Assembly: GCA_010092885.1 (NCBI GenBank) | Contig: JAADYX010000159.1 | Location: 27,554-91,553, forward strand | Source of the DNA: Chloroflexota bacterium | GTDB lineage: Bacteria > Chloroflexota > Anaerolineae > Aggregatilineales > UBA3940 | Length of the DNA stretch: 64,000 bases | Direction of reading: 5' to 3' | Shown: one piece after another, positions 8,312 through 40,928 of the stretch | Position numbering within the stretch: the first letter of the stretch is position 1 | Layout of the letters: each line of letters begins with the position of its first letter | Translations under genes and position numbers: made by a program | Notes under the pieces: model-generated | Database searches by the model: none | What the model was told of the DNA's origin: nothing | What the model saw: only the letters and a program-made list of their open reading frames with translations

Positions 8312-11107
8312 TCAGGGGGCTACAGCAGCCAGGGCATCACAGGCCGGGCAGGAGCCATCCGGGCGGATCATGGCGTAACCGGCCTGCGGATCCGCGCCAT
8401 AGACCTGAAAATCTACATTGAAAATGATCATCATCCGGACACGCCCACTTTGTGACGACAGGACGGCTGCTTCAGCAAGCCAGGCGGCCTGCTGCTGAAC
8501 CGTCGTGTTTGAGGCCCATCCGAAGGCAGAGGGCAGAGAGTCAAACCCTTCGCCGCTCAGATAGCCCAGTTCGGTGAAGCACAGCGGCTTACCGAACTTA
8601 TCGTAGCGGCTGATCATGCCATAGAAATAGCGCGTCGGGTACTCGTCACGCGGGTCTCCCGTGCGCTGGCTCGGCGGAATGATGCCCTCGTTGTAGTGCA
8701 CCCCCATGCAGTCCATGTAGTTGGCAGCACCGGCAGCAGCCATCTGATCGACGTACACATCATCATTGCAGCCTGTGATGGTACTGTCCCCCACAGTAAT
8801 GGTCGAACATCCGCCCGGGAAAGCACCGGTCGGGGTGGGCGCACCCGCAATCACCAGGACGTTGGGGTTCGCTGCTTTGATCGCTTCATAAGCTGGCGCG
8901 AGCATGTTGGTCACATAGCTTTCACCACTGATCTGATCGGCTGGCCACTCGCGGTCGAAGTTCATCTCATTCCACACTTCGATGGCATCGGGGCCGAGGG
9001 CGGCCACCCCCGCCAGGAACTGCGTGTAAGCGGCATAGTCGATGCTGTCCGGATACAGTGGACCGGGGATGCTCAACAGCACCTTGAAGCCGCGCGCACG
9101 CGCGTCGTTGATCCGACCGGCAACTGCACTTGGCGGGTCAGCCGGAGACCACTTGTGCTGGAACTTGACCCAGGTCATCCCGGTGGCGGCCATGAGATCC
9201 GGGTTAGCGAAGCTGTGTGTTTGGCCACCCAGCTCAAATTCGCCTGCCGCGATGGTGCCCGTCGGCGGTGCCGGAGTGGGCTGTTCGGTGGGCTCTTCTA
9301 CTTCCTCGGGTGGGAGTTCAGCCTGCTCATCACCGGCTTCGTCCTCCTCTTCCGGCTCAGCCGGTTCAGGCACCGAACCGGCTACATCCAGGGTAAGTGA
9401 CCCGATGGCGGTTTGCTGATCGCCGGTTTGCACCCGCGCCGCGATCTCGTATGTACCCGTATCGCTGAACACTTGCCAGAGCACCTGCATCAGCGTGAGA
9501 TCCCCGCTTTGTTCCGCCACAACGGTACCATCACCCGTTGAGACATTCCATACCAAGCTGATCGGGGTGGGGCCTTCAACTTCACCCCCGGTGAGGAACG
9601 CGTTGAGCCCGTTGATCACAGTTGGCGCAGCATATGGTTCACCCGCGCCCTCTACCGCGACCGCACCCAGACCGTAGGCCCGGGCCCACTCCAGCCGCTG
9701 CTGAAGCGCCTGCGCGGAGCTGAAGTAGACGATGTGGCTGCCTTCATTGTCCGAATAAGTGAGGTAGTTCATGCCGAGTGCAGGATCAAATCCCATCGAC
9801 TCAACCTCGCCCTGCAGACGCACAGCGAAATCCGCGTTGACCGGCACCGGCGCTCCAGGCGTGAGGTAGCCTTCAATGGCGGTCACCTCACCGAATAAAG
9901 CAGAAGCTTCCTCAAAGGTTAGCGGCTGGGCTCCTGTGTCGGACAGATCAACAGTGTACGCACTGACCAACAACCCGGTGCGGCTGCGCTCTACATGGGC
10001 CACCAACGTATCGAGTGCCTCACCACTGGCATACACTGCTGGATCGGCCCCGGGCGCCAGCCACACCCGATCCGTGGTGCGCCCCAGTGCAGCCAGATCA
10101 TAGGAGTTCATCGAGTCCGCGTAGACGATCACGCCCAGCGTCTTGGACTCAGCGGCCAAATCCTCCGCCAGCGCCGCGACAAACGCCGCATAGCCGGATC
10201 CTGGTGAGAAATCCAGGACAAGACCGTTGTAGCCGGCAGCCAATGCAACCAGTGCGTCATGGAGATTGTCTACGCCCTCGTAGCTGACAAGGGCACGGTT
10301 GGTTACGACAGGCGTGATGCGTGTACCAGATGCTTCGACAGGTGTGCCGTTCAGCTGGCCACTGCCATCGACTGTCACGCCGCGCGGCATGGCCAATCCA
10401 TAATCCGCATCGGTCTGACCACCATTTGCGGGGATGACCTCTGCGGCCTCAGCCGCCTCTGGCTGCGTGCGCACGGCCATCACCGCGAGGTTCTGACTGG
10501 CATCAAACACGATGCTGCCCGTCGCTGCATCAACAGTGCTGGGCACGAACTGCCACTCACCGTCCTGCCAGGCATACAGATCAACAAGGGCCAGCGGCTC
10601 AGCGCCATTTGGGATCGCCATCAGCCCGGTGAGGGAGCCGTCGCCGCGCGTGGTCACCTCATAGATGGGGCTCAATGGTTCGAGCCGGGCAGGCAGCACG
10701 CTGTATGCGGCTGTCCACTGACGGCCAGCCTGCTCACTCACGAACAGTTCACGGGGAACCGTCTCCACGCGGACTCGGGCACTGCCCTCCTCAATGCGCA
10801 GCAGCAGACCATCCGGATGGGTTATCTCCGGCGAGGCTGCATTGAGTGCCGTCGCGCGTCCACCACCGAGCAGAGCGACAGCAGCCACCACTACACCGAC
10901 CACAACAGCCAATCCGCCCACACCAGCAACTGGCAGAAGCCATTTGGGCATACCACGCGCGTCGTCATTGGCGGGCATTTCAGAGGCGGGTACTTCAGAC
11001 TGCTCCAGCTCAGGCACATCTGCTGGTTCAATGATGGGGGTTTCCTGCTGTTCGGGGACTGAGTCCAAGATGTCCTCAGCGATGTCGTTGTCACGATCGT
11101 CGCTCAT
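8312..11107 (-). CDS. Large membrane-anchored multidomain protein (array member 1, first gene of the array)
   Basis: ATG 11107 is preceded by GAGGAG. Acidic N-tail, then TM WLLPVAGVGGLAVVVGVVVAAVALL. GH18-like: AAGYNGLVLDFSPGS ... RLEWARAYGLGAVAVEG. PKD-like: LVWNVSTGDGTVV..GTYEIAARV. An E/P-rich linker follows. GH-A: FELGGQT, AIEVWNEMN, MGVHYNEG, CFTELGYLSG, RPDGSCPAC. Confidence 0.75.
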   Translation of the reverse strand: MSDDRDNDIAEDILDSVPEQQETPIIEPADVPELEQSEVPASEMPANDDARGMPKWLLPVAGVGGLAVVVGVVVAAVALLGGGRATALNAASPEITHPDGLLLRIEEGSARVRVETVPRELFVSEQAGRQWTAAYSVLPARLEPLSPIYEVTTRGDGSLTGLMAIPNGAEPLALVDLYAWQDGEWQFVPSTVDAATGSIVFDASQNLAVMAVRTQPEAAEAAEVIPANGGQTDADYGLAMPRGVTVDGSGQLNGTPVEASGTRITPVVTNRALVSYEGVDNLHDALVALAAGYNGLVLDFSPGSGYAAFVAALAEDLAAESKTLGVIVYADSMNSYDLAALGRTTDRVWLAPGADPAVYASGEALDTLVAHVERSRTGLLVSAYTVDLSDTGAQPLTFEEASALFGEVTAIEGYLTPGAPVPVNADFAVRLQGEVESMGFDPALGMNYLTYSDNEGSHIVYFSSAQALQQRLEWARAYGLGAVAVEGAGEPYAAPTVINGLNAFLTGGEVEGPTPISLVWNVSTGDGTVVAEQSGDLTLMQVLWQVFSDTGTYEIAARVQTGDQQTAIGSLTLDVAGSVPEPAEPEEEDEAGDEQAELPPEEVEEPTEQPTPAPPTGTIAAGEFELGGQTHSFANPDLMAATGMTWVKFQHKWSPADPPSAVAGRINDARARGFKVLLSIPGPLYPDSIDYAAYTQFLAGVAALGPDAIEVWNEMNFDREWPADQISGESYVTNMLAPAYEAIKAANPNVLVIAGAPTPTGAFPGGCSTITVGDSTITGCNDDVYVDQMAAAGAANYMDCMGVHYNEGIIPPSQRTGDPRDEYPTRYFYGMISRYDKFGKPLCFTELGYLSGEGFDSLPSAFGWASNTTVQQQAAWLAEAAVLSSQSGRVRMMIIFNVDFQVYGADPQAGYAMIRPDGSCPACDALAAVAP

Positions 11108-36568: not shown

Positions 36569-36689
36569 TGTGTTCTCCTTTTGGGTAGTTACCCGCCCAT
36601 GATACGCGCCCACCTGCCTGACGGCAAGCCGTAAGATGTGGCGGGTGCTTTCCATCCAAAGAGTGAACGTCTATGGAATGAGGACAGAT

Positions 36690-37169
36690 ATGCTCAAGCG
36701 CATTTTTTGGACTGGTCTTCTGATGATAGTGAGCAGCGTGCTTGCGGCCTGCTCAACAGCAGCCGCCGGGCCCGAATTTCCGATGCTCGATGGTGACACA
36801 ACCACACTCGCTGACTATGAGGGGCAGGTGGTGGTCGTCAACTTTTGGGCCACCTGGTGCGGACCCTGCCGCGTAGAAATGCCTACGCTCCAGGCCTTTT
36901 ATGAAGAACACGGCAGCGGCGATTTCGAACTGTTGGCGGTCAACATTGGGGAGACACCCGAAACCGCCCAGGGTTTTGTAGATGAGGGTGGTTTTACATT
37001 CCCCATCGTGCTTGATCCCAACGGCACTCTATATGACTACTTTGGCGTGCGCGGACAGCCCTCCACGTTTGTGCTGGACCGTTCCGGCGAGATCGTCTTT
37101 TCCCACACCGGATTGATCACCCGAGAGCAGATCGATGAAGCGGTGCTCCCCCTACTTGAAGAGAGCTAA
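36690..37169 (+). CDS. TlpA/ResA-like thiol-disulfide oxidoreductase, lipoprotein
   Basis: Trimmed to ATG 36690. MLKRIFWTGLLMIVSSVLAAC (lipobox LAAC). The thioredoxin motif is NFWATWCGPC. Confidence 0.8.
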   Translation: MLKRIFWTGLLMIVSSVLAACSTAAAGPEFPMLDGDTTTLADYEGQVVVVNFWATWCGPCRVEMPTLQAFYEEHGSGDFELLAVNIGETPETAQGFVDEGGFTFPIVLDPNGTLYDYFGVRGQPSTFVLDRSGEIVFSHTGLITREQIDEAVLPLLEES

Positions 37170-37207: not shown

Positions 37208-37588
37208 TCAGCAAACGTCGCCAGTCTCTCCAACGCCCACGGGTTCCAGTCCTTCCACATGGGGAACCATGCAGATGAATCGCAGCACGCCCTCGCCGCG
37301 ATTGTAGAAGCCATGTTCTTCATTGGCGCGGATGAAGACAGTCGAACCTGTTTCAATGTGATGCTCCTGGGCGTCCGCATCCTTGATGACGCCTTCACCT
37401 TGCAGGATGAAGACCTCGTGTTCGTAGTCATGGCTATGGAACGGTGTCTGGCAACCGGGCTCCACCTCAATGACGCGCATGGCAAAGTTAGGCGCATCGT
37501 CCCGCTTGCCGATCATCCACCGAATGGTGACACCTTCCACACCAGGGAAGGCCGTCGCTTCGCGGTCGGTAAATGCTTCGATCTTCAT
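37208..37588 (-). CDS. Cupin-domain protein
   Basis: PFHSHDYEHEVFILQGEG matches cupin motif 1 (HxH...E...G). 126 aa, immediately downstream of metG. Confidence 0.75.
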   Translation of the reverse strand: MKIEAFTDREATAFPGVEGVTIRWMIGKRDDAPNFAMRVIEVEPGCQTPFHSHDYEHEVFILQGEGVIKDADAQEHHIETGSTVFIRANEEHGFYNRGEGVLRFICMVPHVEGLEPVGVGETGDVC

Positions 37589-37599
37589 CGTTTAACCTC

Positions 37600-39357
37600 C
37601 TATACAAGCTCGCGTTCGAGTACAGATTCCCGATCTAACTTATCGTACAGTGCGGCTGGCGGCTGCATGCGCTGCCCCGGCGGCAGGTGGAGCGGCCCCC
37701 ACGCAACATTCGCTGCTGAACCGTCATAGATGAGCGCATCATGTGAGCGCGTTTCCTCATCATATGTCACAATCTGCTGTTCACCAAACAGCTGCGCATC
37801 GTCAAACCCGAGCATGGCCAGCAGCTTCTGTGAGCTGAATGGCAGATAAGGCGCCAGCATCACAGCGAGATGGGTGATCGCCTGCAGGGCTGTGTACACG
37901 GTGCGCGCAGCAGCCTGCTTGTCCTCCTTGACCACACCAAACCATGGCGCTTTGTCCAGATAGACATTCACCTCACGGACCAGAGCCATGGCTTCATCCA
38001 GGCCGCGGCGCAGCTTCACAGCATCCAAGTGCGCACCGACCGTCTCAAAACCCGCCTCTATCGTGGCCAGCAAGGCGCGATCTTCCTCACCGAGTTCGCC
38101 GGCATCCGGCACGTGACCATCCCAATACTTGTTGGCGAACTTCAACACACGGTTGGCCAGGTTACCCCACCAGCCGACAAGTTCGCTGTTGTTGCGTGTG
38201 ACGAAGTCCTCCCAGGTGAAGTTGCTATCGCGGACCTCGGGCATGTTGGCGGTGATATAGTACCGGATCGCGTCGGGATCGTACGCCTCCAACGCCTCAT
38301 GCAGCCAGACCGCATGCCGACGGCTCTTGGAGAATTGGTCATTGTCCAGCCGGAGGAACTCGTTGGCGGGCACATCATAAGGCAGGTTGAGCGCCGTATC
38401 ATCGTCAGTGTATATACCACTGACCCCGATCAGCTCAGCGGGCCAGATGATCGTGTGGAAAGGGATGTTGTCCTTACCCAGGAAGTTGTAGATACGCGCC
38501 TCCGGATTGTACCACCACTGCCGCCACGCTTCGGGGTTGCTTGTGCTCTGCGCCCATTCAAGCGAAGCAGAGAAGTAGCCAATGACCGCCTCAAACCAGA
38601 CATACAGCTTCTTCTCGCGCCAGCCGTCAAGCGGTACCGAGATACCCCAGTCAATGTCACGTGTGATAGGACGCCCTTTCAGATCAGCAGCGAGTTCACG
38701 CGAGAAGTTGAGCACGTTGGCCCGCCAATGATCTTTGTCATCGCCTAGATAGGCAAGCAGTTCCTCCTGCAACTTGGGGAGATCCAGGAAGTAATGGGTC
38801 GTTTCGCGGATGACGGGCGTGGCCCCTGTCAGCTTGCTGCGCGGATTGATGAGCCGCACAGTCTCCATCAGGTTGCCACAGTTGTCACACTGATCGCCGC
38901 GCGCGTCCTCAAACCCGCAGATGTAGCAGGTTCCTTCCACAAAGCGATCCGGCAGGAAGCGCTCAGCCACTTCATCGAAGAACAGCTCCTGAGTCTCCTG
39001 ATAGAGGTAACCGCGTTCGTGCAGCTGCAAAAAGAAATCCTGCGAGATGCGATGGTGATTCTCTGTATCGGTATGTGTGTACAGATCAAAGGTGATACCG
39101 ATCGCCCGCTGTGTCTCAAGGAAACGTCTGTGGTATTTTTCAAAGGTCTCGCGTGGCGTAGCGCCCTCTTCCTGCGCGGTCAGGATGACGGGCGTACCAT
39201 GCGAGTCCGACCCGGATACCATCAGCACATGGCTGCCCTTCAGCCGATGGTAGCGGGCAAATATATCACCGGGCAGCAAGTTGCCTGCCAGGTGCCCGAT
39301 GTGTAGATCACCATTGGCATAAGGCCACGCGACCGAAACATGAATATAGTCTGCCAT
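37600..39357 (-). CDS. metG: Methionyl-tRNA synthetase
   Basis: Trimmed to ATG 39357 (GGGAGGAG SD). WPYANGDLHIGHLAG (HIGH), zinc knuckle CYICGFEDARGDQCDNCG, FSKSRRH (KMSKS). Confidence 0.92.
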   Translation of the reverse strand: MADYIHVSVAWPYANGDLHIGHLAGNLLPGDIFARYHRLKGSHVLMVSGSDSHGTPVILTAQEEGATPRETFEKYHRRFLETQRAIGITFDLYTHTDTENHHRISQDFFLQLHERGYLYQETQELFFDEVAERFLPDRFVEGTCYICGFEDARGDQCDNCGNLMETVRLINPRSKLTGATPVIRETTHYFLDLPKLQEELLAYLGDDKDHWRANVLNFSRELAADLKGRPITRDIDWGISVPLDGWREKKLYVWFEAVIGYFSASLEWAQSTSNPEAWRQWWYNPEARIYNFLGKDNIPFHTIIWPAELIGVSGIYTDDDTALNLPYDVPANEFLRLDNDQFSKSRRHAVWLHEALEAYDPDAIRYYITANMPEVRDSNFTWEDFVTRNNSELVGWWGNLANRVLKFANKYWDGHVPDAGELGEEDRALLATIEAGFETVGAHLDAVKLRRGLDEAMALVREVNVYLDKAPWFGVVKEDKQAAARTVYTALQAITHLAVMLAPYLPFSSQKLLAMLGFDDAQLFGEQQIVTYDEETRSHDALIYDGSAANVAWGPLHLPPGQRMQPPAALYDKLDRESVLERELV

Positions 39358-39369
39358 TGCTCCTCCCAT

Positions 39370-39395
39370 AAAAAGAAAAACCGCCTTTGCGGCGG
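39370..39395 (-). terminator. Intrinsic-terminator-like element in the metG leader (attenuator terminator)
   Basis: Minus strand: CCGCC (39395..39391), loop GCAAA, GGCGG (39385..39381), then UUUUUCUUUUU (39380..39370). It ends 3 nt before the metG SD. The upstream gene is divergent, so this cannot be another gene's terminator. Confidence 0.55.
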
Positions 39396-39418
39396 AACCA
39401 AACAACCCGATCAACCAG

Positions 39419-39478
39419 CTATACGCTGGTTCCGCTGCGGACGTATCGATCGGGGCACATCATCATCGCTTTAATCAT
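39419..39478 (-). CDS. Candidate leaderless leader peptide MIKAMMMCPDRYVRSGTSV (three consecutive Met codons)
   Basis: Hand translation of ATG ATT AAA GCG ATG ATG ATG TGC CCC GAT CGA TAC GTC CGC AGC GGA ACC AGC GTA TAG. The ATG sits 6 nt after a TATACT -10 box and has no SD. It is too short for the ORF track. Confidence 0.45.
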   Translation of the reverse strand: MIKAMMMCPDRYVRSGTSV

Positions 39479-39484
39479 GAGGAT

Positions 39485-39514
39485 AGTATAGCATAGGTAT
39501 CCCACCAGTTTCAC
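39485..39514 (-). promoter_or_regulatory. Putative promoter of the metG leader
   Basis: Minus strand: GTGAAA (39514..39509), 18 bp spacer, TATACT (39490..39485). The -35 is weak and the -10 is good. Confidence 0.45.
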
Positions 39515-39530
39515 GGGAAAGGGCCGCTCA

Positions 39531-40928
39531 ATGCATGAGATGTTCCAATCGCCATTTACGTGGCGCTACGGTACGCCGCAGATGCGCCAACTGTGGTCCG
39601 AGGTTGAAAAGCGCCGCCGCCTGCGGCGGGTATGGGTTGCACTGGCTGAAGCGCAGGTGCGGGCGGGGCTGGTCACGCCAGAACAGGCTGCCGATCTGCG
39701 CACCCACATGGATGCGATCGATATTGAGCGCGCTCATGAGATCGAAGCCGAGATCCGCCATGATCTGATGGCTGAAGTCCGCACGTTTGCCGAGCAGGCC
39801 ACAGTCGGTGGCGGGATCATCCATCTCGGCGCAACCAGCATGGACATCAGCGACAATGCCGAAGTCACCCGGCAGCGCGATGCGCTCGATATCATTCTGG
39901 CCAAAGTGGACCGATTGCTGCTGGCGTTTGCAGATCAGATACAGCGGTGGGGCGACACACCGACCATCGGGTGGACGCACATTCAGCCCGCCGAACCAAC
40001 GACGATCGGTTACCGGCTGGCCACTTACGCCCAGGATCTATTGGCTGATGAGGCCAATCTCCAACGTCTGCGGCGGAACTTGAGAGGCAAGGGGATCAAG
40101 GGTGCGGTTGGGTCGGCCGCAAGCTACCAGCAGCTTCTTGAAGGCACCGGCGTGACTGCCGCCGATCTTGAAGCACAGATCATGGAAGCACTCGGTCTGA
40201 CTGCGTTTCCCATCGCGACACAGACTTACCCGCGCCGTCAAGATTGGGAGCTGATCACTGCGTTGGCTGGGCTCGCAGGCACTATCTATCGCTTTGCCTT
40301 TGATCTGCGCCTGCTGCAGAGCCCACCTTTCGGTGAATGGTCGGAACCGTTCGGCAGCAAACAGGTTGGATCGTCGGCGATGCCCTTCAAGCGCAACCCG
40401 ATTCGCGCCGAAAAGCTGAACAGTCTGGGGCGCTATGTGGCCACACTGCCGCGCGTTGCCTGGGACAATGCCGCGCACTCACTGCTCGAACGGACACTCG
40501 ATGACTCGGCCAACCGGCGGACAATCATACCGGAGGCCTTTCTGGCTGCCGATGAGATGCTGCGCGTTGCCATCGCTATTGTAGAGGATCTCACCATAGA
40601 TGAGCAGGCTGTTGCCCACAACATGGCCCGCTATGGGGTGTTTGCCGCCTCAGAACGCGTGTTGATGGCTGCGGTCAAAGCGGGGGCGGACCGGCAGCAC
40701 CTGCATGAAGTTATCCGCGAGCACAGTATGACAGCCTGGGATGCTGTCCGCCGCGGCCAGGACAACCCACTGCCGGATCTGCTGGCCACTGATGCATCCA
40801 TCACCGCGCATCTTTCTGCGCAGAACGTCCGCGCTCTGATGGATGCGTCCAACTATGTAGGGGATACACCCATCAGAGCATTGGCCATGGTAGGCGCTAT
40901 CCGCCAGTCGCGGAGCGCTGACGGATAA
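39531..40928 (+). CDS. purB: Adenylosuccinate lyase
   Basis: GATSMDISDN and the fumarate-lyase signature GSSAMPFKRNP. 465 aa. Confidence 0.9.
   Translation: MHEMFQSPFTWRYGTPQMRQLWSEVEKRRRLRRVWVALAEAQVRAGLVTPEQAADLRTHMDAIDIERAHEIEAEIRHDLMAEVRTFAEQATVGGGIIHLGATSMDISDNAEVTRQRDALDIILAKVDRLLLAFADQIQRWGDTPTIGWTHIQPAEPTTIGYRLATYAQDLLADEANLQRLRRNLRGKGIKGAVGSAASYQQLLEGTGVTAADLEAQIMEALGLTAFPIATQTYPRRQDWELITALAGLAGTIYRFAFDLRLLQSPPFGEWSEPFGSKQVGSSAMPFKRNPIRAEKLNSLGRYVATLPRVAWDNAAHSLLERTLDDSANRRTIIPEAFLAADEMLRVAIAIVEDLTIDEQAVAHNMARYGVFAASERVLMAAVKAGADRQHLHEVIREHSMTAWDAVRRGQDNPLPDLLATDASITAHLSAQNVRALMDASNYVGDTPIRALAMVGAIRQSRSADG

Follow-up and report, generated by a model that had tools for sequence, protein, structure and literature searches.

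A candidate methionine-codon leader-peptide attenuator upstream of metG in a Chloroflexota bacterium and its recurrence at related metG loci

The region upstream of metG, the methionyl-tRNA synthetase (MetRS) gene, in a Chloroflexota bacterium (assembly GCA_010092885.1) appears to contain a functional ribosome-mediated transcription attenuator that senses Met-tRNA. The region lies in a 64,000-nucleotide stretch of contig JAADYX010000159.1 (positions 27,554 to 91,553), here called the window, and all coordinates given below are window positions. An earlier note, made from the sequence of the window, had proposed that a leaderless small open reading frame (sORF) with three consecutive Met codons switches three alternative structures, A, B and C, to control metG. 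On the comparative and thermodynamic evidence presented here we give this reading a probability of about 0.8; it is supported by conservation of the layout in a family of related loci, by the spacing between the -10 box and the sORF start codon, by the folding of the transcript around a ribosome footprint, by a helix B core that near relatives also carry, and by the lack of an Rfam riboswitch match in the leader.

RESULTS

Layout of the metG leader

The proposed sequence anatomy was confirmed throughout (Table 1). The promoter had been described as GTGAAA and TATACT separated by 18 bp, and both the reading of the sequence and a promoter scan placed it at the same coordinates, with an 18-nt spacer that carries, on the minus strand, a TG at its 3' end. 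In a scan of positions 38800 to 40100 this promoter was the sole sigma-70-like match, and the hairpin with a T-run recovered by the same scan was terminator C. Six nucleotides, ATCCTC, separate the -10 box from the sORF ATG (39478-39476), and the sORF reads ATG ATT AAA GCG ATG ATG ATG TGC CCC GAT CGA TAC GTC CGC AGC GGA ACC AGC GTA TAG, the stop codon occupying 39421-39419. Reading of the sequence revealed no GGAGG-like Shine-Dalgarno sequence before this ATG; the spacing from the -10 box and the absent Shine-Dalgarno sequence together predict a leaderless transcript with its transcription start site at or adjacent to A39478. The leader therefore opens with a short ORF that has a predicted usable start, 6 nt past an extended -10 box, and the control codons clustered in that ORF, AUG-AUG-AUG, are cognate to the gene that follows. 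The start, length, stop codon and missing Shine-Dalgarno sequence of the sORF, and the position of its three successive Met codons (39466-39458), all agree with the earlier note.

The three structures were likewise found where they had been drawn. The outer stem of A pairs CCCGAUC (39454-39448) with GAUCGGG (39412-39406), and its inner hairpin pairs AACCAGC (39431-39425) with GCUGGUU (39419-39413), with the sORF stop codon in or beside the inner loop. Structure B pairs GCGGAACCA (39435-39427) with UGGUUCCGC (39400-39392), and a G39426-U39401 pair lengthens it to 10 bp, one pair more than had been claimed; its pairing elements within the leader are GCGGAACC and GGUUCCGC. The stem of C, CCGCC (39395-39391) with GGCGG (39385-39381), belongs to an intrinsic terminator that lies between the leader ORF and metG (39395-39370). 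After the sORF stop codon the leader reads CTGGTTGATCGGGTTGTTTGGTTCCGCCGCAAAGGCGGTTTTTCTTTTTAT, up to the metG Shine-Dalgarno sequence GGGAGGAG. That B excludes both A and C was borne out by the overlapping bases, since B shares CCGC with the 5' arm of C, and by partition-function folding, and A constitutes a 1:2 anti-antiterminator or pause hairpin that gives predicted termination if the leader is untranslated. The NCBIfam identities and strands of the two genes also bear out the divergent arrangement of metG and purB, so that terminator C cannot serve an upstream gene.

When compared with dinucleotide shuffles, structure A (-23.1 kcal/mol, z = -3.97, equaled by 0 of 200 shuffles), its inner hairpin (-10.1 kcal/mol, z = -4.31), the fold that contains B (-22.3 kcal/mol, z = -2.65) and C (-9.0 kcal/mol, z = -2.70) were more stable than expected; the whole 124-nt leader was only marginal (z = -1.62, 13 of 200 shuffles as good). 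A marginal value for the whole leader is expected of a switch with mutually competing alternatives, and it means that the argument against chance depends on the sub-helices and most of all on the reappearance of the layout in relatives. Taken alone, the window locus is suggestive, not conclusive.

Ribosome position and choice of fold

The transcript from 39478 to 39380 was folded by partition function with a 30-nt unpairable stretch that mimicked the ribosome, the A site being moved codon by codon. The ribosome-free transcript adopted A and C, with probabilities P(A) = 0.97, P(B) = 0.01 and P(C) = 0.95. With the A site anywhere from the second or third Met codon through Tyr12, P(C) was 0.00-0.18 and P(B) was 0.7-0.9; from Val13 to the stop codon, where the footprint masks GCGGAACCAG, P(C) was 0.95-0.97 (0.96 at the stop codon itself). 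This pattern was unchanged for footprint 3' edges of +8, +10, +11, +12 and +14 nt, counted from the first A-site base. In silico, then, the position of the ribosome selects the fold, the antiterminator being favored on the Met codons and the terminator at the stop codon, as expected from the proposal that a ribosome paused on the Met run shifts the balance toward B. When the 5' arm of A was deleted, the minimum-energy fold contained B (-29.9 kcal/mol, 73% of the ensemble) and also paired CGUC (39443-39440) with GGCG of the terminator 3' arm.

Recurrence of Met-rich leaders upstream of metG

Identity to the window MetRS reached at most 66% in species-representative genomes (Anaerolineae and Anaerolineales metagenome-assembled genomes [MAGs]) and at most 65% in JGI metagenomes. 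In a collection of 5.8 billion proteins the best non-self match was 76%, followed by a cluster at 68-72%; an identical protein is present in an NCBI Chloroflexota MAG.

The layout that recurs in relatives consists of TTGACA-N17/18-TAnnnT, a gap of 6-7 nt, an ATG, a Met-rich sORF (median 28 codons, usually about 18-40) and a strong hairpin with a T-run. Under a strict definition, which demanded that a stretch of 12 codons contain three or more internal Met codons and that a terminator at or below -9 kcal/mol lie within 120 nt, the element was present in 55 of 95 Chloroflexi-like metG upstream regions and in 0 of 55 metG loci from Actinobacteria, Dormibacterota or other groups found by the same search, and in additional loci beyond the strict set the core is MxM and the internal Met codons number two. 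The earlier note had put forward, as a comparative check, the presence of short Met-codon ORFs upstream of related metG genes, and by this count such ORFs are conserved among Chloroflexota of the Anaerolineae type.

The enrichment was also apparent when loci were chosen without regard to Met codons. In 74 loci selected solely by a strong terminator upstream of metG, ATG was the commonest trinucleotide in the 130 nt before the hairpin (377 occurrences, with 129 expected from base composition; CAT occurred 203 times), and 250 of 304 successive ATGs (82%) were in frame. Among 376 other strong terminators from the same loci there were 1.9 ATGs per site, compared with 5.1, and 46% of successive ATGs were in frame; the reverse strand of the same regions contained no Met-rich ORFs. 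Met accounts for 14% of internal sORF codons in the family.

Of 51 loci, 46 have the sORF ATG 6 nt (15 loci) or 7 nt (31 loci) after the TAnnnT -10 box, and TTGACA lies 17-18 nt upstream of the -10 box in relatives; this conserved geometry predicts leaderless transcripts. Other initiation layouts exist: locus L085 has a Shine-Dalgarno sequence, L037 and L100 have a longer 5' untranslated region (UTR), and in L097 and L153 the sORF ATG overlaps the stop codon of the upstream gene. The Met-rich sORF of the last two loci (MS.QG.FRMMMRRMTW.P.MRGSPV) lies about 170-110 nt upstream of metG, with its ATG overlapping the TGA of a gene whose product ends ...RQLRDYLS, and is probably translated by coupling rather than as leaderless mRNA. 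What is conserved would then seem to be translation of the sORF and not the mode of its initiation.

Leader peptides of the family include MNTFSRDMMTMRMPLPQRDRRQ (L005), MKFKLEDLMVPMTVAMQMEMSSRAWIAR (L024), MYTQPAFPMVTMTMAMSSMRMEMSSRAWIAR (L124) and MTTRAVVFSMLMRCHLWRFGSEAL (L015). A run of three Met codons like that of the window occurs in MITRAMMMSRIPAQFSAR (L128), MNENGMMMSRPHLQFNAR (L122), the leader of L161, the relative with 76% identity (MTSVAQHVMMMCMRSASPLRRCGTLF..., also given as MTSVAQHVMMMCMRS...), that of L166 (MMVASQMMMQTCLRT..., also given as MMVASQMMMQTC...) and that of L097 and L153 (...FRMMMRRMTWMPGMRGSPV). In one relative the interval upstream of metG contains an uncharacterized 52-amino-acid gene call.

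These comparisons bear directly on the simplest alternative, namely that an ordinary promoter and a structured 5' UTR happen to coincide with a stretch rich in ATG and with a small GC hairpin that a T-run follows, the sORF being untranslated. The marginal fold of the whole leader, the short stem of hairpin C (5 bp) and the five occurrences of ATGATGATG in the window are what such a coincidence might produce. It would not account for a layout that 55 or more divergent loci share, with Met codons in frame, a conserved distance from the -10 box and antiterminators that match (see below), and that is absent from 55 non-Chloroflexi metG loci and from control terminators, or for sub-helices A, B and C that each outdo shuffles. 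The comparative data already strongly disfavor chance, and we regard it as extremely improbable.

Matching of antiterminator and terminator strands

Nine loci from near relatives were examined. They have in common with the window the Met cluster and the GCGGAA:UUCCGC pairing, and their terminators and flanking helices are arranged otherwise. In the family as a whole the terminators comprise, besides the window's own type, several unrelated types, namely, CCGTCTGTCC...GGACAGGCGG, GGGCTGTCC...GGACAGCC, CCGCCAGCCTCG..GCTGGCGG and GCCGCCAGTTCCGCACTGGCGGC, and each type has a matching complement in or just before the last sORF codons; the strands concerned are GGACAGACGG, TGGAAAGCACGT, CGAGGCT and GCGGAA(C).

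The segment that pairs best with the 5' arm of the terminator was located, in most loci, between about -14 and +1 as counted from the sORF stop codon. The resulting duplex was stronger than those of shuffled sequences (mean z = -1.58 over 50 loci, with 40% of loci below -1.64), and duplexes between strands of the same locus averaged -17.0 kcal/mol, 5.0 kcal/mol better than cross-group duplexes, a mean reached by 0 of 10,000 permutations (p < 1e-4). The stop-proximal sORF segment of the window scored -20.9 kcal/mol with its own terminator arm and a mean of -11.6 kcal/mol with 50 foreign arms, none of which (0/50) was as good. These alignment-free duplex z-scores and the own-versus-cross permutation were used in place of covariation in a MAFFT alignment of subgroup B (alignment A1), whose paired columns fell out of register because both strands gain or lose a base together (UGGA/UCCA versus UGGGA/UCCCA). 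The co-varying variants in that subgroup are UGGA/UCCA, UGGGA/UCCCA, CGGGA/UCCCG and CUGGG/CCCAG.

Among the near relatives, the GCGGAA(C) motif is common to the window, L161-L165, L168 and L169, with GCGGAAC:GUUCCGC as the core of helix B, and in L167 UGGGA:UCCCA replaces GCGGAA:UUCCGC at the same place, which amounts to two compensatory pairs. The suggestion that the helices would be conserved in relatives was thus upheld for B, whose core the nearest relatives retain. Structure A is not universal in the family; in several relatives the free transcript favors the antiterminator (P[terminator] near 0).

Because the antiterminator strand lies next to the sORF stop codon, a ribosome terminating there would mask it; one stalled on the Met codons would leave it exposed. 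The footprint model, applied to 50 loci, gave lower values of P(terminator) for a ribosome on Met codons than for one at the stop (Wilcoxon p = 5e-4). A measure that counted any pairing by the 5' arm of the terminator once the 3' arm had been removed from the transcript was noisy at individual loci and is useful only as a paired statistic.

Two further observations concern these strands. In L161-L165, L168 and L169, about 100-200 nt upstream of metG, GCGGAA(C) is in the loop of a conserved intra-sORF hairpin, for example, GGGGA-CGCGGAAA-UCCUC, and its complement, UUCCGC, forms the loop in the terminator GCCGCCAG-UUCCGCA-CUGGCGGC; L167 has UGGGA and UCCCA at these same two loop places. In these near relatives the contact could be a loop-loop (kissing) interaction instead of, or besides, a plain antiterminator. 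In subgroup B (loci such as L024, L026, L029 and L124; alignment A1, columns 1-6), the sequence CGCGCC just 5' of the antiterminator strand is nearly invariant and encodes R-A-W. In L025 the CGCGCC stretch is located beyond the stop codon, and its pairing partner is GCUUUCCCAGG, near the beginning of the sORF. Judging from these pairings, the CGCGCC of subgroup B may be part of a 1:2 helix.

Alternative signals and sensors

A second alternative accepts a ribosome-dependent attenuator and assigns it another cue, such as translation speed, an antibiotic or nascent-peptide arrest by methionine or S-adenosylmethionine (SAM). Leaders of the ermC and vmlR type are precedents for antibiotic or translation-speed control, and TnaC is a peptide whose arrest responds to tryptophan. 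The structural logic requires just a ribosome pause at codons 6-12, whatever its cause, and some residues after the Met cluster (for example, R-A-W and D-R-R) look conserved within subgroups. These residues coincide with the antiterminator RNA strands GACAGACGG, UGGAAAGCACG and GCGGAAC, so that peptide conservation outside the Met codons maps to RNA strands and speaks against both a functional small protein and a specific arrest peptide. In-frame Met codons are the sole feature common to all subgroups, the peptide being otherwise unconserved, and the regulated enzyme charges tRNA-Met, in keeping with the cognate-codon principle behind the leaders of pheST, trpS and leuS. A cue other than Met-tRNA is therefore unlikely in our judgment.

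The third alternative is attenuation that is independent of translation, by a T-box-like RNA with an AUG specifier, by a SAM or other riboswitch, or by MetRS binding to its own leader, with the sORF incidental. T-boxes are typical of aminoacyl-tRNA synthetase (aaRS) genes in Firmicutes and occur in Chloroflexi (PMC2494555), and by eye UUGGUUCCGCCG is loosely like the T-box sequence, AUGA being a possible specifier plus purine. Rfam 15 gave no relevant match to the T-box (RF00230), SAM or any other riboswitch at E <= 10 in window positions 39250-39650; the only matches to the leader at that threshold, DUF2800 and anti-hemB, scored 12 bits each, far below their gathering scores. At the gathering threshold, the whole window gave nothing upstream of metG and one tRNA elsewhere, and 20 related loci gave nothing relevant there, just a tRNA and a divergently oriented cobalamin riboswitch. 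With the covariance models negative at both thresholds, the T-box or riboswitch reading was rejected. A leader of about 100 nt, moreover, could not accommodate Stem I and its distal loops, and the in-frame ATGs (82%), the start 6-7 nt from the -10 box and the stop codons beside antiterminator strands fit translation, not an aptamer. Sensing without translation is, in our view, very improbable. The cobalamin riboswitch just mentioned (43.8 bits; L040, 2596-2758, minus strand) is upstream of metG, pointing away from it, in a Caldilineales locus that has no Met leader.

Features and surroundings of the window locus

Table 1. Coordinates of the metG leader elements and flanking genes in the window
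Feature	Coordinates	Strand	Basis and remarks
metG (methionine--tRNA ligase, 585 aa; regulated gene)	37600..39357	-	NCBIfam TIGR00398, E = 1.8e-144
metG Shine-Dalgarno sequence GGGAGGAG	39360..39367	-	Sequence reading; followed by CA and the metG ATG at 39357
Intrinsic terminator C: CCGCC-GCAAA-GGCGG (39395-39381) and U-tract UUUUUCUUUUU (39380-39370)	39370..39395	-	Terminator scan; -9.0 kcal/mol
Antiterminator B, 3' strand UUGGUUCCGC	39392..39401	-	Overlaps 4/5 bases of terminator 5' arm
Structure A (anti-antiterminator, possibly also pause hairpin)	39406..39454	-	-23.1 kcal/mol, z = -3.97; P 0.97 ribosome-free
Leader sORF MIKAMMMCPDRYVRSGTSV*, 19 codons plus stop, predicted leaderless	39419..39478	-	Sequence reading; analogous sORFs in relatives
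Antiterminator B, 5' strand GCGGAACCAG	39426..39435	-	Inside sORF, 5-14 nt upstream of first base of stop codon
Three consecutive Met (AUG) control codons ATGATGATG, sORF codons 5-7	39458..39466	-	Sequence reading
Extended -10 TGcTATACT (TATACT 39490-39485, TG 39493-39492)	39485..39493	-	Promoter scan
-35-like hexamer GTGAAA	39509..39514	-	Promoter scan; 4/6 matches to TTGACA
purB (adenylosuccinate lyase; divergent, context)	39531..40928	+	NCBIfam TIGR00928, E = 2.9e-112

The purB ATG is just 16 nt from the metG -35 hexamer, and the sigma-70 scan found no purB promoter on the plus strand between them (39479-39530); either the divergent promoters overlap or purB uses signals that the scan does not recognize. 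On the other side, a small cupin-domain gene lies beside metG (37208-37588, minus strand), with a thioredoxin/AhpC-TSA-like gene nearby (36636-37169, plus strand). Both neighbors recur downstream of metG in near relatives (L161 and L163-L169), so the neighborhood downstream of metG is conserved and the upstream neighbor is variable.

The five copies of ATGATGATG in the window compare with 1.1 expected from shuffles, the others being at 8758, 12643, 24821 (minus strand) and 45849 (plus strand). A scan of the whole window for sORFs with an ATG 6 nt after a -10 box, followed by a terminator, found no amino-acid-run leader besides that of metG; further hairpins with U-tracts are predicted elsewhere in the window. 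Directly 3' of A there is a U-rich stretch, UUGUUUGGUU (GAUCGGG-UUGUUUGGUU, 39396-39412), and the finder of hairpins and T-runs scored it as a weak terminator-like site (-14.4 kcal/mol). By analogy with the 1:2 pause hairpin of trp, it could be a polymerase pause site that synchronizes transcription with leader translation.

DISCUSSION

We infer the following course of events, in which the signal would be the charging of elongator tRNA-Met and metG would be autoregulated by leader-peptide attenuation. Transcription would begin at or adjacent to the A of AUG 39478, and the 19-codon leader would be read as a leaderless mRNA. When Met-tRNA-Met is plentiful, the ribosome would pass through AUG-AUG-AUG to the UAG codon, where its footprint would cover GCGGAACCAG; hairpin C and its U-tract could then form, and RNA polymerase would stop immediately ahead of the ribosome-binding site of metG. 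If MetRS activity or methionine runs short, the ribosome would stall with the second or third AUG in the A site, covering CCCGAUC, the 5' arm of A, and leaving GCGGAACCAG free to pair with UUGGUUCCGC. This pairing would sequester the 5' arm of the terminator, and in the predicted fold the 3' arm also, to allow read-through into metG. If the leader were untranslated, A and C would both form, resulting in termination.

Several points weigh against this reading. At the window locus, the -35 hexamer GTGAAA is a weak match to the consensus, the stem of C has only 5 bp (-9.0 kcal/mol) compared with 8-11 bp in relatives, so that attenuation may be leaky, and the inner hairpin of A (-10.1 kcal/mol) forms earlier than B and is a possible kinetic competitor. 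Helices A and C of the window are without covariation support, the closest MetRS relative being 76% identical. The footprint model is an equilibrium model that ignores cotranscriptional kinetics and RNA polymerase pausing, and under it about half of the relatives keep a stable terminator at every ribosome position, which makes the structural support from the family statistical, not uniform. Finally, methionine is both the sensed and the initiating amino acid: a leaderless sORF needs fMet-tRNA (formylmethionyl-tRNA), which is charged by MetRS, and a severe shortage of MetRS could therefore abolish leader translation and favor termination via A and C. Since the folding model predicts that an untranslated leader terminates in the window and reads through in several relatives, members of the family may differ in their response to a severe MetRS shortage.

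The classical case of an aaRS operon under leader-peptide attenuation is Escherichia coli pheST, with its pheM leader peptide. Like pheST and the trp, his, leu and thr attenuators, the metG leader has a short ORF in which tandem codons match the function under regulation, and it has mutually exclusive 1:2, 2:3 and 3:4 helices that end in an intrinsic terminator, with a stalled ribosome predicted to select the antiterminator; it shares with pheST the further point that the cognate aaRS is the target (for aaRS parallels, see PMC1262725). It differs from systems of the pheST and trp type in its AUG sensor codon, its metG target, its predicted leaderless character without a Shine-Dalgarno sequence and its Chloroflexota host, in that it has no sequence or Rfam-model similarity to them, and in that the sensed amino acid is also needed for initiation. 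In mycobacteria, leaderless sORFs with polycysteine runs control downstream genes via ribosome stalling at a single repeated codon. To our knowledge, those attenuators act without a canonical terminator of hairpin and U-tract. They resemble the metG leader in being leaderless and in having a single-codon run and differ from it in the codon, which is that for Cys, and in the targets, which are Cys-metabolism operons.

Leaderless leader peptides have also been described for other aaRS genes. Leader-peptide attenuation was predicted for Streptomyces trpS and leuS (PMC1262725), leaderless leader peptides occur upstream of alaS, thrS, trpS and leuS in Streptomyces lividans (PMC8079986), and 14 putative leaderless leader peptides for aaRS (including cysS) and amino-acid genes were listed for Deinococcus deserti (PMC4007540, of which the supplementary list falls outside our comparison). 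In these reports (PMC8079986, PMC1262725 and, for the part compared, PMC4007540), a 5'-AUG opens a short ORF in which the cognate amino acid is overrepresented, and hairpins, sometimes with a U-tract, follow upstream of the aaRS gene, much as in the metG leader. The Streptomyces and D. deserti leaders, as set out in those articles, are single-genome predictions; the metG element, by contrast, recurs in more than 55 loci of another phylum and has an explicit antiterminator. None of the descriptions compared here (for D. deserti, the main article) concerns metG. The nearest counterpart that deals with methionine is the S. lividans "metL" upstream of metNIQ, a leaderless sORF with Met codons (…CMCRRMCAF) that was proposed as a Met-dependent attenuator (PMC8079986). 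It differs from the metG leader in its target, a methionine importer, in having few Met codons and, according to its authors, no typical intrinsic terminator, and in its phylum.

In Firmicutes, T-boxes respond to uncharged tRNA by antitermination and yield more synthetase (PMC2494555, PMC1262725). They have the same physiological logic as the metG leader and use a terminator/antiterminator switch; unlike it, they sense tRNA directly by RNA-RNA contacts without translation, through a Stem I and a T-box sequence that the metG leader does not contain.

Full-text searches of the literature, with the D. deserti supplementary list of 14 outside their scope, turned up neither a Met-codon leader for the control of metG or metS nor any leader peptide in Anaerolineae. 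The novelty suggested in the earlier note is accordingly narrower than implied: its Met-codon leader for metG had no precedent in the literature searched, but leaderless leaders for other aaRS genes had already been described. New here are the amino acid sensed, the target gene, the phylum and the class-wide conservation; the mechanism itself is already known, and the metG leader represents no new regulatory principle. On balance we favor the view that Anaerolineae harbor an undescribed, widespread family of mostly leaderless Met-codon attenuators dedicated to metG, which would be the first leader-peptide control described for MetRS.

If this is so, the product of the regulated enzyme is needed twice, for initiation on the sensor ORF (fMet-tRNA at a leaderless 5'-AUG) and for elongation through the control codons, and it can be envisaged that the response has two thresholds, a moderate shortage giving read-through and a severe one termination or some other outcome, according to whether a 1:2 helix is present. 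The more than 55 natural variants, which include MMM and MxMxM cores, leaderless, Shine-Dalgarno-led and stop-coupled initiation, and leaders with or without the 1:2 helix, form a series that is useful for comparing attenuator design and leaderless translation. Since Met leaders match no Rfam family, genome annotation would benefit from their description.

In conclusion, the findings extend aaRS leader-peptide attenuation, as a candidate mechanism, to methionine and to a phylum with almost no characterized gene regulation. How MetRS is matched to demand outside the Firmicutes that use T-boxes is poorly understood, and the metG leader provides a concrete, testable cis-element for one class of Chloroflexota.

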